A stretch of DNA of 15,592 nucleotides. Origin: Gemmatimonadota bacterium. GTDB lineage: Bacteria; Gemmatimonadota; Gemmatimonadetes; Longimicrobiales; RSA9. The DNA lies in contig JBBDRO010000079.1 of NCBI GenBank assembly GCA_040905425.1, positions 7,757-23,348 on the forward strand, read 5' to 3'. Below are positions 2,989 to 6,581 of this stretch, one piece after another (the first letter of the stretch is position 1; each line of letters begins with the position of its first letter). The notes beneath the pieces were generated by a model. The model had not been told where the DNA came from and ran no database searches. It saw only the letters and a program-made list of their open reading frames with translations. The position numbers and the translations under genes are program-made.

Positions 2989-3070
2989 CATTTCACTGTT
3001 CGATACGCATAAATTGGCCGCATTTCGAGCATGACGTACCCAGAACATCCGCAAGCACGGGCGCTTCTAC

Positions 3071-3099
3071 TTGACATATCGTTCGCTCGCCCAGATGAT
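3071..3099 (+). promoter_or_regulatory. Putative sigma70 promoter of glnA
   Basis: TTGACA (3071-3076), 17 nt, GATGAT (3094-3099). Confidence 0.55.
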
Positions 3100-3184: not shown

Positions 3185-4624
3185 ATGATCGGACATGGAA
3201 CGGCAGACCGGGGCCCCAGGGGACCCGCGCACGGCGGGCTGGTGCCCGTTCATCGCGTGGGCGCCACCGCACTGGGGAGCCGGCAGAACCGGCCGCGAGG
3301 CGCGGCGCGCGCAGAGATCGTGCGGCGTCTCGAGGCGGCCAACGTCCGCTTCCTCAGGCTCCAGTTCATCGACGTGCCGGGTGTCATCAAGAACGTGGAA
3401 GTCCCCCGCGGCCAGTTCGAGAAGGCGCTGGAGGGGGACATGATGTTCGACGGCTCCTCCATCGAGGGATTCGTGCGCGTGGAGGAATCGGACATGGTGC
3501 TCCACCCCGACCCCGACACGCTGGTGGTCTTCCCGTGGGGTGATCCGGACAACCGTGTGGCGCGGATCATCTGTGACGTGCGCACGGCCGCCGGCGAACC
3601 CTTCGAGGGCGATCCACGACGGGTTCTCAGGCGGCAGATCGCGGCGGCAGCGGAACTCGGCTTCGAGATGATGGCGGGAGTGGAAGCCGAGTTCTTTCTC
3701 TTCCACAGAGCGGAGGACGGCTCGCCGACCCGGCTCACGCACGACTCGGGCGGGTACTTCGACCTCACGCCGGTGGATCTGGGTGAGGTGGCGCGGCGCG
3801 ACATCGTGAACGTGCTGGACACGCTCGGCTTCGAGGTCGAGGCGGCGCACCACGAGGTAGCGCCGGGTCAGCATGAGATCGACTTTCGCTACACCGACGC
3901 CCTTACCACGGCCGATGACCTGGCCACCTTCAAATTCGTGGTGCGCAACATAGCCCTGCAGCACGGGTTGCACGCCACCTTCATGCCCAAACCCATCTTC
4001 GGGCGCAACGGTTCGGGCATGCACACCCACCAGTCCCTCTTCCGGGACGGTGAGAACGCCTTCTACGACGCCGCCGATCCGGACGGGCTGTCCGATGTGG
4101 CGCGCTGGTACGCGGGCGGACTGCTGAAACACGCACGCGCCCTGTGCGCCGTGACCAACCCGCTCGTGAATAGTTTCAAGCGTCTGGTCCCCGGGTTCGA
4201 GGCACCGGTGAACGTGGCGTGGTCCCACCATAACCGTTCCCCCATGATCCGGGTCCCGGCGCGCCGCGAGAAGGGCACGCGGCTGGAACTGCGCATGCCC
4301 GATCCGTCGGCCAACCCGTATCTGGCCCTGGCCGTCCAGCTGGCCGCCGGGCTGGACGGGGTGCGGCGGCGGATCGAGCCGCCGGAGCCGGTGGACAAGA
4401 ACATCTGGACACTGTCGGTGCGCGACCGTCGACGCTACAAGATCCAGGAACTGCCGCGTGATCTGGGCGAGGCCATTGCGCTGCTGAGGCGGAGTTCATT
4501 CATGAAACGCACCCTGGGGGAGCACGTCTTCGATCATTTCGTGGCGGCGAAGGAGCAGGAGTGGGAGGCCTACATCGCGCAGGTCCACGATTGGGAAATC
4601 GACGCCTACCTGGGCGCCTATTGA
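3185..4624 (+). CDS. glnA: Glutamine synthetase type I (GSI-alpha-like; start uncertain)
   Basis: Motifs VRFLRLQFID, FDGSSIEGF, EESDM, GVEAEFF, GYFD, HHEVAPGQHEI, ATFMPKP, NGSGMH, RLVPGFEAP, NRSPMIR, RLELRMPD. ATG 3185 is preceded by GGAGAG. In-frame GTGs at 3242 and 3257 are alternative starts. Confidence 0.94.
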   Translation: MIGHGTADRGPRGPAHGGLVPVHRVGATALGSRQNRPRGAARAEIVRRLEAANVRFLRLQFIDVPGVIKNVEVPRGQFEKALEGDMMFDGSSIEGFVRVEESDMVLHPDPDTLVVFPWGDPDNRVARIICDVRTAAGEPFEGDPRRVLRRQIAAAAELGFEMMAGVEAEFFLFHRAEDGSPTRLTHDSGGYFDLTPVDLGEVARRDIVNVLDTLGFEVEAAHHEVAPGQHEIDFRYTDALTTADDLATFKFVVRNIALQHGLHATFMPKPIFGRNGSGMHTHQSLFRDGENAFYDAADPDGLSDVARWYAGGLLKHARALCAVTNPLVNSFKRLVPGFEAPVNVAWSHHNRSPMIRVPARREKGTRLELRMPDPSANPYLALAVQLAAGLDGVRRRIEPPEPVDKNIWTLSVRDRRRYKIQELPRDLGEAIALLRRSSFMKRTLGEHVFDHFVAAKEQEWEAYIAQVHDWEIDAYLGAY

Positions 4625-4640
4625 AGCTTGTCCTGGGACG

Positions 4641-5822
4641 TCAGCCCCGGCCTTCCGCGCCGGCGCCCGCCGTGGCCGGGGATTGGCGCTCGCCGCTGCG
4701 GTCTTCGGGGAAGGCCACCACGACCCTGGTGCCGGCCGGCATGGTGTCCCAGCGCACTTTTCCGCCGAGCTCGTTGTGCACCAGCGCCGTGACGATGGAC
4801 ATGCCGCTCCCCGTCACGCTCGGTTCCCGCTCCATGCTGCTTCCCATGCCATCATCCTCGACCACCATGCGTAGTTCATCCGCGTCATGCTCGAAACGTA
4901 GCCCGATGGTGCCCTCCCTGCCGTCCGGGAAGGCATGGCGGAGCGCGTTGGTGAGGAGTTCGTTCAGGATGAGCGCCAGGGCAAAACCGCGCCGCTCGTC
5001 CAGGATCAGGCTGACGCCGCTGATTTCCAGGTCGATGTGCCGCTCCACGTCCCAGGCGTTGCGCAGCCTCTGGGCCAGCTTGTCGGCGATCTCCCGGGCA
5101 GGCACACCGGCGTAGTTCTGCCGGCGCAGAGCCTCGTGCACGAGCAGGAAGGAGCGCAACCGGTGCTCGAGGGAGGCCAACGCTTCGGCAGGCTCCCGTG
5201 GGGGACGCCGATTCCGCTCCATGCCGAGCAGGCCCATGATGACCGAGAGGTTATTGCGCACCCGATGGTCCAGCTCGCGCAGCAGGAGACTGCGCTCCTC
5301 GGCATCGTGGCGGGCCTGTTCGTAGAGCTGGTAATTCTGGTCGGCCAGTTCCTGGAGCTGCGCGTTGGCCGTCTTGAGCGCCAGTTCGGCGCGATGGACC
5401 CGCAGGCGCGACTCGATGCGCGCGGTCAATTCCGCAATGTGGAATGGCTTGGCCACGTAGTCGTCGGCACCTGCCGTGAAGGTACGCACCACGTCATCGG
5501 GTGCCGTTCGAGCGGTCACCATGATGACGGGCAGCAAGGGATCGTGCCGCTCCTTGATGTCCCGGCAGATGCTCCAGCCGTCGCGGCCCGGCAGCATGGC
5601 GTCCAGCAGGACGAGGTCGACCTCGTCCAGGAAGGCGAACGCTTCCTCCCCGCGCGCTACGGAAATCACCTCGTAGTGGTGCGCCTCCAGTAGATCGGTG
5701 AAGGTCTGGCGCGCGAGCGGTTCGTCATCGACCACCAGGACGCGAACCGCGTCTCGGGCACGCACCGGGTCGGCGCCGTTCCGCACGGCATCGGGACGGC
5801 CATCATCCTTGCTGGAGCTCAT
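4641..5822 (-). CDS. Cytoplasmic hybrid histidine kinase: N-terminal receiver, coiled coil, HisKA_2 (PdtaS/EutW-like) and HATPase (393 aa)
   Basis: REC motifs VLVVDDE, LVLLDAMLPG, VTAR, YVAKPF. H-box RELDHRVRNNL, N-box NELLTNALRHAF, G1 DDGMG, G2 GSGMSIV. No hydrophobic TM segment. Starts 12 nt after the ANTAR gene stop. Confidence 0.9.
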   Translation of the reverse strand: MSSSKDDGRPDAVRNGADPVRARDAVRVLVVDDEPLARQTFTDLLEAHHYEVISVARGEEAFAFLDEVDLVLLDAMLPGRDGWSICRDIKERHDPLLPVIMVTARTAPDDVVRTFTAGADDYVAKPFHIAELTARIESRLRVHRAELALKTANAQLQELADQNYQLYEQARHDAEERSLLLRELDHRVRNNLSVIMGLLGMERNRRPPREPAEALASLEHRLRSFLLVHEALRRQNYAGVPAREIADKLAQRLRNAWDVERHIDLEISGVSLILDERRGFALALILNELLTNALRHAFPDGREGTIGLRFEHDADELRMVVEDDGMGSSMEREPSVTGSGMSIVTALVHNELGGKVRWDTMPAGTRVVVAFPEDRSGERQSPATAGAGAEGRG

Positions 5823-5834
5823 GCCCGGCTCGCC

Positions 5835-6425
5835 TCAATCACGCTGTAGCAGGGGGGCGGCGAGCAGGATCTTGCGCGCCAGATCCACCATGGGCGTGTT
5901 CTTGTCCTGGCTGGTCTTCTGCAGGAAGCGGTAGGCGTCCTTCTCCGACAGGCCGCGGGATTCCATGAGCAGGCCCTTGGCGCGTTCCACGATCTTGCGC
6001 TCCTCGAGCCGCATCTCGAGCATGTCACGATCCTTCCGGGCGCTGTGCCATTCGGCGAAGCGGGCGCGTGCCACGGCAATGGCCGGAGCCAGGTCATCCG
6101 GATCCACCGGCTTGACCAGGTAGTGGAAGATCGGTGCCCGCGTGGCTTCCTCGACCGTCCGCGTATCACTGTACGCGGACAGTATGATCATGGGGATGGC
6201 ACGCTCCGCGGCAATCTCATGGGCGGCTTCCGGCCCCGTCATGGTGGGCATACGGATGTCCAGGAAAGCCAGATCCGGCTCGGTCTCACGTGCCAGTTGC
6301 ACCGCCTCCCGCCCGTTGGCCGCGGTGGCCACGACCTCGTGTCCGAGGGTTTCGAGCTGACTCTTCAGCGCGAGGTTGTGCAGGGCCTCGTCATCGGCGA
6401 TGAGCACGCGGAGGGATTCACTCAT
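5835..6425 (-). CDS. REC-ANTAR response regulator (PdtaR/EutV/NasT-like RNA-binding antiterminator, 196 aa)
   Basis: REC motifs VLIADDE, LAFLDIRMP, ILSAY, YLVKP. ANTAR signature LEERKIVERAKGLLMESRGLSEKDAYRFLQKTSQDKNTPMVDLARKIL. RBS AAGGAG upstream. Confidence 0.94.
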   Translation of the reverse strand: MSESLRVLIADDEALHNLALKSQLETLGHEVVATAANGREAVQLARETEPDLAFLDIRMPTMTGPEAAHEIAAERAIPMIILSAYSDTRTVEEATRAPIFHYLVKPVDPDDLAPAIAVARARFAEWHSARKDRDMLEMRLEERKIVERAKGLLMESRGLSEKDAYRFLQKTSQDKNTPMVDLARKILLAAPLLQRD

Positions 6426-6453
6426 GGCGGAGGCTCTCCTTCAAGATAGTAGC

Positions 6454-6489
6454 AACAAAAACGCACCTGCCCCGGTCGGGGAGGCGCGT
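6454..6489 (-). terminator. Intrinsic terminator/attenuator in the 5' leader of the ANTAR gene
   Basis: Minus strand ACGCGCCT-CCCC-GACC-GGGG-C-AGGTGCGT (12 bp, one G:U, one bulge) followed by TTTTGTT. It ends ~30 nt before the ANTAR ATG, and there is no upstream same-strand gene to terminate. Confidence 0.8.
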
Positions 6490-6551
6490 CGTCACCTCGG
6501 TGGCCTGCACTTCCCCGCCTTGCCCGGCGAGCGACATGATCACCTGCAGGA

Positions 6552-6581
6552 ATAGTGGACCCGGCGCAAGTCGCAGCGCAA
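6552..6581 (-). promoter_or_regulatory. Putative sigma70 promoter of the ANTAR-kinase operon
   Basis: Minus strand TTGCGC (6581-6576), 18 nt, CACTAT (6557-6552). Predicted TSS is ~6545. Confidence 0.4.

Follow-up and report, generated by a model that had tools for sequence, protein, structure and literature searches.

A conserved terminator-overlapping hairpin ahead of a Longimicrobiales REC-ANTAR operon as a candidate single-site antitermination switch

Published searches for the RNA targets of ANTAR regulators, as far as the available text of these papers goes, demand two hexaloops (PMC3369931, PMC8164766), and the loops of known sites read C[AAHGRM]G in 17 of the 18 cases of Fig. S1 of PMC3369931, eutA P1 being left out. 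Sites in the leader of the regulator itself are among those published, namely in the eutS and L. monocytogenes eutV leaders and in the rows for Desulfotomaculum and Desulforudis (PMC3369931). EutV and NasT are described as needing both hairpins and the spacing between them (PMC8934654, PMC10783516). The EutV structure paper also proposes one loop as the minimal site and suggests Met172, whose loss to Ala abolishes binding, as a determinant of loop size; the accessible part of that paper names no natural single-hairpin terminator switch (PMC8934654). A single 18-nt hairpin is bound at 3.5 nM by NmPAL of Nakamurella multipartita, according to the available text (PMC10966536). Within the open-access literature, a single ANTAR hexaloop with a terminator was found only in the EutV paper and its preprint, and neither an ANTAR pentaloop nor ANTAR antitermination in Gemmatimonadota was found.

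The window, that is, the whole stretch of DNA analysed here (15,592 nt from the genome of a Gemmatimonadota bacterium, hereafter the source genome), carries a REC-ANTAR gene followed by a kinase gene, and a first-pass annotation had read the leader of this operon as an autoregulatory attenuator with divergent twin hexaloops. The features concerned are as follows, numbered from the first letter of the window.

6576 to 6581, minus strand: predicted -35 box TTGCGC of the operon promoter (sequence and ortholog conservation)
6552 to 6557, minus strand: predicted -10 box CACTAT (sequence and conservation), with a predicted start at about 6545
6514 to 6531, minus strand: hairpin A, 6 bp, loop GGGCAA; it folds, shows no conservation and is probably incidental
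6513 to 6499, minus strand: 15-nt linker between hairpins A and B
6481 to 6498, minus strand: hairpin B, the conserved 18-nt element, 6 bp, loop ACGACG; predicted antiterminator and predicted protein site
6490, minus strand: near-invariant loop G (G9) of the 18-nt element
6460 to 6490, minus strand: terminator-like stem-loop, 13 bp, one bulged C, loop GACC (folding and compensatory changes)
6452 to 6459, minus strand: U-rich tail after the terminator-like stem (sequence), ending at about 6452
6436 to 6441, minus strand: Shine-Dalgarno-like AAGGAG, outside the terminator stem (sequence)
5835 to 6425, minus strand: REC-ANTAR response regulator, 196 aa (Pfam PF00072 and PF03861)
4641 to 5822, minus strand: REC-HisKA_2-HATPase kinase (family match), the presumed cognate kinase
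3248 to 4624, plus strand: glnA (type I glutamine synthetase), included as context; it converges on the kinase gene, 16 nt away

Both hairpins and the linker lie exactly where the annotation had placed them, and the terminator, which it had drawn from 6489 to 6454, is present with its stem and U-rich tail, except that the stem starts one base earlier, at 6490. The 5' arm of this stem is made of the loop and the 3' arm of hairpin B, and the overlap of the second hairpin with the terminator, which had likewise been proposed, is conserved in orthologs. The evaluated energies are -11.0 kcal/mol for hairpin A, -8.7 kcal/mol for hairpin B and -23.1 kcal/mol for the terminator. The terminator thus exceeds hairpin B in stability by about 14 kcal/mol, and it dominates every full-length fold. 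In prefix folding, hairpin B has a probability of 0.96 with the transcript ending at 6481 and of 0.0 once it has reached 6460, where the terminator has a probability of 1.0; since one structure is swapped for the other between these positions, the two are mutually exclusive, as the annotation had supposed. Compared with shuffled sequences, the segment 6440-6500 folds with z = -3.7 (0/200 shuffles as good), and the whole of 6426-6545 with only z = -0.93. A competing 5-bp hairpin accompanies only 8 of the 66 terminator-like leader hairpins of the source genome. Across 56 leaders, the post-stem fraction of U per position is 0.41-0.64, vs 0.17 further downstream, the tails being modest, mostly with 3-5 U in 8 nt and with at most 2 U in 5/56. 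The leader site is absent from the list produced by a simple terminator scan, and an Rfam 15 covariance-model search at 6426-6545 gave zero matches up to E = 10. Upstream of the motif, a TTGC...~18 nt...CACTAT-like pair is present in 40/41 motif-bearing leaders. The leader further contains a match to the elemental pause (G-10, Y-1, G+1), presumably to be expected by chance given the GC content. Just past the U tail, at 6454-6446 on the minus strand, TG-N-TACTAT resembles an extended -10 box, from which, in the source genome, transcription might begin beyond the terminator.

The comparison of ortholog leaders, which the annotation had proposed as a check for conserved and covarying hairpins, yielded conservation for hairpin B and the terminator, covariation for the terminator, and neither for hairpin A. 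When a weight matrix was refined iteratively on 56 distinct ortholog leaders, 43 sites reached at least 10 bits; L031 and L018 were dropped, their best site lying away from the terminator, so that the 18-nt element scores in 41/56 leaders. With the matrix frozen, 15 of 24 new, held-out metagenome leaders scored, vs 0/24 reversed controls (29 leaders had been given, of which 3 duplicates and 2 that were too short were removed). The consensus of the 56 pooled motif-bearing leaders is GAGGU-CAYGR(C)-GCGCCUC. Pairs were counted in this anchored set in preference to the MAFFT alignment A1, where the terminator pair counts are weak and those of hairpin B better, and to alignment A3, which was fitted to the model and in which a few of the rows are antisense. 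The pairs G3-C16 and G4-C15 are each found in 56/56 leaders, positions 5 and 14 are paired in 54/56 (U.G 44, C-G 10), and the outer pairs 2-17 and 1-18 in 48/56 and 37/56, respectively; G9 is present in 55/56. The terminator pair at motif position 10 is G-C in 28 leaders, A-U in 19 and C-G in 6, and on a tree of 53 coding sequences of motif-bearing loci this position and its terminator partner change 11 times each, all 11/11 jointly. On the same tree, G9 changes once and its terminator partner 16 times, C16 never and C15 once, vs 6 changes for each of their terminator partners. Because the terminator partners drift while G9, C15 and C16 hold, a second structure and a base-specific reading are indicated. 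Motif positions 1-9 have a mean pairwise identity of 0.76, compared with 0.27-0.28 for the upstream flank and 0.52 for third codon positions. These comparisons point to a genuine terminator stem, to a competing hairpin whose conservation does not depend on the terminator, and to a G9 kept for its base identity.

At E up to 0.05, a covariance model built from 25 leaders and searched in 73 family genomes matched directly upstream of the ortholog in 46/67 genomes, a count assembled by hand that includes the training genomes; all 27 matches with E < 1e-4 lie in ortholog leaders. Fifteen of the 21 missing leaders were fetched; 4 of them score at least 10 bits, and several hold degenerate forms. In about 10/67 genomes the REC-ANTAR protein is intact and no recognisable element is found, which implies that the protein also does something other than act on this leader. 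The spacer from the -10 box to the motif varies from 9 to 56 nt and the register of the motif to the terminator is fixed; a DNA operator was rejected for this reason, and a leader peptide was rejected as no start codon is conserved after GAGGU.

The annotation had recognised that the loops depart from the A1/G4 consensus, and they do so throughout the motif-bearing leaders, where the near-invariant G stands third, after an A (A in 47/56), and is followed by G in 29, A in 20 and C in 7. The pair G6-C13, which would close a hexaloop, is found in only 5/56, with C.C in 50. In 51/56, C6-G12 pairing is possible, leaving a loop AYGRC with C13 bulged, and a one-base-shorter variant in 14/56, with 7 changes on the tree, leaves a four-base loop. 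The consensus gives -4.9 kcal/mol for an open 8-nt loop, -3.8 kcal/mol for the C6-G12 form and +0.8 to +1.1 kcal/mol for the U5-G12 hexaloop register. This shifted register, in which G9 would take the place of 'G4', is attractive by sequence and was rejected, being about 6 kcal/mol worse than the open loop; it is retained only as a possible protein-induced form.

The claim that twin hexaloops form the site of the regulator had to be abandoned, since hairpin A is unconserved and hairpin B so seldom closes a hexaloop. Between the predicted start and the motif, 8/40 leaders have a hexaloop on a 4-bp stem vs 8.5 shuffled, 21/40 have one on a 3-bp stem vs 20.4 shuffled, and 0/40 have one with A1/G4; ortholog leaders show no excess of loop-like words ahead of the motif. 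In leader L023, the motif begins 9 nt after the predicted -10 box, leaving about 4 nt and therefore no room for a first hairpin. A hexaloop hairpin of at least 6 bp is held by 928 of the 7366 48-nt leader windows of the source genome (12.6%), so that hairpin A, taken by itself, is within chance expectation. A tandem pair of stem-loops with 3 bp or more is found in the source genome only, orthologs being at chance level; no six-base loop is maintained on the terminator-overlapping hairpin across the 56 motif-bearing leaders, nor do these carry the A1/G4 loop of ANTAR dual-hexaloop RNA. As these three defining features were tested and are lacking, the element falls outside the dual-hexaloop family, and hairpin A is probably incidental, with no conserved part in the switch.

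The REC-ANTAR gene is the only ANTAR match in the source genome, and the kinase the only HisKA_2 match. Orthologs with 73-88% identity are present in 67/73 family genomes, the source genome counted, and the named records among them are Longimicrobiales or unclassified Gemmatimonadota. Asp56, the predicted phosphorylation site, is found in 55/55 orthologs, with receiver and ANTAR domains present (Pfam), and the residues by which EutV reads G4 (R142, K149, E160 and Y164) are kept in 55/55 full-length orthologs. The position of EutV Met172, which is Met in the alignments of EutV, PdtaR, NasR and AmiR, is Gln in 55/55 orthologs (Gln173 in the source protein). Gln is also found in 17/17 ANTAR domains from other families of Gemmatimonadota and in 15/20 weaker REC/ANTAR matches in the order, and the element is absent from the leaders of these Gln-bearing genes; therefore, Gln is no predictor of the element. 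Among 141 genomes sampled across the phylum, the model matched strongly in none but the two family genomes; three weak matches lie in genomes without an ANTAR match. A second REC-ANTAR paralog, 51-63% identical and in most cases also with Gln in place of Met172, is present in many family genomes (L168-L181); its leader is short and does not contain the element. In another family of the class, REC-ANTAR genes occur in 13/31 genomes (L275-L287), most of them directly behind another receiver-domain gene and without a leader containing the 18-nt element.

The kinase lies directly downstream of REC-ANTAR in 44/44 ortholog loci; no sensor domain was detected in it, only its own receiver, and we take EutW and PdtaS to be of the same HisKA_2 kinase family. 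A convergent glnA follows the kinase in 35/44 loci, and 4 of the 9 misses end at or soon after the kinase. In the window, the two genes meet head-on at 4625-4640, 16 nt apart, with no room for a terminator. The kinase-glnA gap is -83 to +18 nt in 14/35 loci, one value of -384 being set aside, and the remaining gaps have room for hairpins; this arrangement suggests overlapping 3' ends of the kinase and glnA. Of 32 glnA leaders examined, 27 have a TTGACA box, and in 12 of these a WGCAH word stands upstream of it, mostly by 12-13 nt (for example in L092, L095 and L098, and at about 3049-3076 of the window), vs 1 WGCAH in the control window; this word may be where a DNA-binding regulator of glnA binds. 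TGATCA occurs 6 times in the window, at 2855, 2975, 3096, 6185, 6537 and 13962 (2.3 expected; 6 reached by 6/200 shuffles). Three of these copies surround the divergent promoters of GSIII and glnA, and the ANTAR leader has one.

Further targets were sought with several tools. In the source genome, the covariance model gave one strong match, the next having E 0.19 (150 of 9822 candidates scored), and 20 weaker off-leader matches in the family genomes and 7 in the source genome, read by eye, are ordinary GC-rich stems with no shared downstream gene. A pattern search of the 73 family genomes gave 18 off-leader matches vs 27 in the control, a weight-matrix scan of 2226 leaders of the source genome gave 10 sites of at least 12 bits vs 5 antisense and 12 reversed, and canonical dual A1/G4 hairpins were counted 61 times in leaders vs 79 and 78 in controls. 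A looser terminator-plus-hairpin list for the source genome contains no nitrogen cluster, and no conserved element was found in the glnA, GSIII and paralog leaders, those of glnA and GSIII being short, or in the ANTAR-kinase gap; off-target matches overall are at control level (10 vs 11). Since the 2226 leaders come from rough gene calls and the filters pass only some of the candidates on for scoring, these searches can overlook targets that are weak or of another shape; with no second target above control, the circuit is without evident output. In the genome of L126, the ANTAR leader is without the element and a motif-like copy (15.6 bits) is present in the ANTAR-kinase gap, at L126:6590-6607 on the plus strand, just past the ANTAR stop codon; this copy, a single case, overlaps a hairpin that would cover the kinase ribosome-binding site.

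Because a conserved terminator-like hairpin and a conserved competing hairpin stand in the leader of the only ANTAR gene, an attenuator, probably an autoregulatory one, is the best reading of this locus, and we assign a probability of roughly 0.6 to a single-site, positive autoregulatory ANTAR attenuator in the REC-ANTAR/kinase leader. The annotation's autoregulatory attenuator of the ANTAR-kinase operon is retained in its conserved terminator and competing hairpin, and is stripped of its twin-hexaloop motif. Transcription would start near 6545 and, by default, stop near 6455. The co-encoded kinase would phosphorylate Asp56, and the activated ANTAR dimer would capture hairpin B as it emerges and read a flipped-out G9, the loop being closed by C6-G12 (five or four bases, with C13 bulged) or open at 7-8 bases. 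The bound dimer would occlude the 5' arm of the terminator, allowing read-through, which would raise the regulator and the kinase in a positive feedback. The family loop C[AYGRC]G corresponds to the published C[AACGGC]G or C[AAUGGC]G minus one A, and the element sits where the second hairpin (P2) of published ANTAR sites does; this likeness of loop and position, together with the kept guanine-reading residues, supports the ANTAR protein as operator. The glutamine synthetase neighbours hint at a nitrogen signal, and antisense read-through into the convergent glnA may, speculatively, be an output of the operon. Against the single-site attenuator stand the need of EutV and NasT for both hairpins and their spacing and the loss of EutV binding in M172A, both as described in the available text of those studies, the lack of a second target in the source genome or, by pattern, in 73 genomes, the about 10/67 genomes that keep the protein without the element, the modest U tails, and a hairpin B some 14 kcal/mol weaker than the terminator.

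Among the alternatives, the one that survives best, which we regard as unlikely, holds that the attenuator is real but run by another factor, be it a small RNA, a different RNA-binding protein or polymerase pausing in which a NusG-family factor takes part, the ANTAR protein acting on other RNAs or partners. A motif that fails the twin-hexaloop definition, orthologs that have lost Met172 and genomes that keep the protein without the element would suit such an operator, but a trans factor would usually be expected to have several targets, the element is found only in the REC-ANTAR leader in the searches described above, and its loop matches published ANTAR loops. The source genome does have a second NusG-family gene, but this paralog belongs to a sugar-modification operon, and no such motif is found in its 500 nt upstream. 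The gene lies at G000:C24:31385-31888 on the minus strand, near the head of a nucleotide-sugar/polysaccharide-type operon.

It is improbable that the ANTAR protein binds hairpin B with the short terminated leader (about 90 nt) serving as a decoy or buffer in the manner of EutX/Rli55 and PPE1-5'. Once the RNA has terminated, the bases of the loop are taken up in the pairing of the terminator stem, so that the decoy site would be hidden; the length from promoter to motif (9-56 nt) and its sequence vary freely. These points weigh against the great excess in stability of the terminator over hairpin B, the proposal, in the accessible text of PMC8934654, that a single hexaloop is enough for sequestration without polymerase timing, and the description of such RNAs for PdtaR in the portion available. 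Little probability is likewise left for a constitutive leaky terminator, or a processing or stability hairpin, that dampens expression and whose 5' extension is no switch: the conservation of motif positions 1-9, mostly outside the stem, at 0.76 against 0.27-0.28 for the flank and 0.52 for third codon positions, and the holding of C15 and C16 by G4 and G3 rather than by their terminator partner, speak against it, even if the terminator dominates every full-length fold and stems of the GGCGCGCC type are common across this GC-rich Longimicrobiales family (weak matches). Very improbable, finally, is a divergent twin-hexaloop ANTAR site formed by hairpins A and B, which do both fold in the source genome with a 15-nt linker within the 2-25 nt given as used in the available text of PMC8164766, but which face upstream hexaloops at 8/40 vs 8.5 shuffled, A1/G4 at 0/40, unenriched loop-like words, L023 without room, and hexaloop closure of hairpin B in 5/56.

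The leader switch is real, conserved and undescribed, and is a single-hairpin variant of a known mechanism, with predicted protein binding. The element provides a natural, well-conserved candidate for a single-hairpin terminator switch that combines one hairpin, an altered loop and a Gln protein family; if the ANTAR protein is not the binder, it would still be an undescribed attenuator-like RNA of Longimicrobiales. As a tentative generalisation, there may be a Gln-plug class of ANTAR proteins that antiterminates via a single hairpin whose loop is short (penta- or tetraloop, C bulged) and not via two hexaloops, in which case the residue at the Met172 position would set the loop size, and many ANTAR proteins now without targets would have targets invisible to dual-hexaloop searches; at the present locus, the sole output in view would be the operon.

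Of the described systems, compared here as far as the available text of the cited papers portrays them, EutV/EutW (E. faecalis eutP, eutG, eutS and eutA, and L. monocytogenes eutV leaders; PMC3369931, PMC8934654) also pairs a REC-ANTAR protein with a co-encoded kinase, has a small hairpin that overlaps the 5' arm of the terminator and a site ahead of the regulator's own genes, and shares the loop bases A-Y-G-R-C followed by G as well as the guanine-reading residues. The Longimicrobiales leader differs in having no conserved first hairpin and a loop that departs from the A1/G4 hexaloop, comprising four or five bases next to a bulge or else standing open at 7-8 nt, and its protein has Gln for Met172, with only one site per genome found. 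NasR/nasF, AmiR/amiE and NasT/NalA likewise antiterminate through an ANTAR protein at a leader terminator, but all use two hexaloops (PMC3369931, PMC10783516). The D-K-N residues after the Met position in NasR match those found here, whereas NasR and AmiR have Met at the 172 position itself, in contrast to Gln in the present family. PdtaR (Rv1626)/PdtaS of M. tuberculosis provides the closest solved structure by sequence (E 1.9e-40), with the same REC-ANTAR layout and Gln at the Arg168 position. PdtaR, however, keeps Met and is reported, in the text available, to act on dual stem-loops that cover ribosome-binding sites, as well as on a decoy RNA (PMC8131098, bioRxiv 10.1101/660928). The terminator with which the present element overlaps, by contrast, stands well ahead of the ribosome-binding site, and where PdtaS has GAF/PAS, the kinase here has a receiver domain. 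NmPAL is unlike the present system in being a light sensor with selected or mined ligands, a different loop sequence and no terminator link in the available description, but it resembles it as an ANTAR protein without the Met plug, having Ser there, that acts on a single hairpin with a non-A1/G4 loop (PMC10966536); the binding of this hairpin by a protein with Ser therefore indicates that a Met-less ANTAR can bind RNA.
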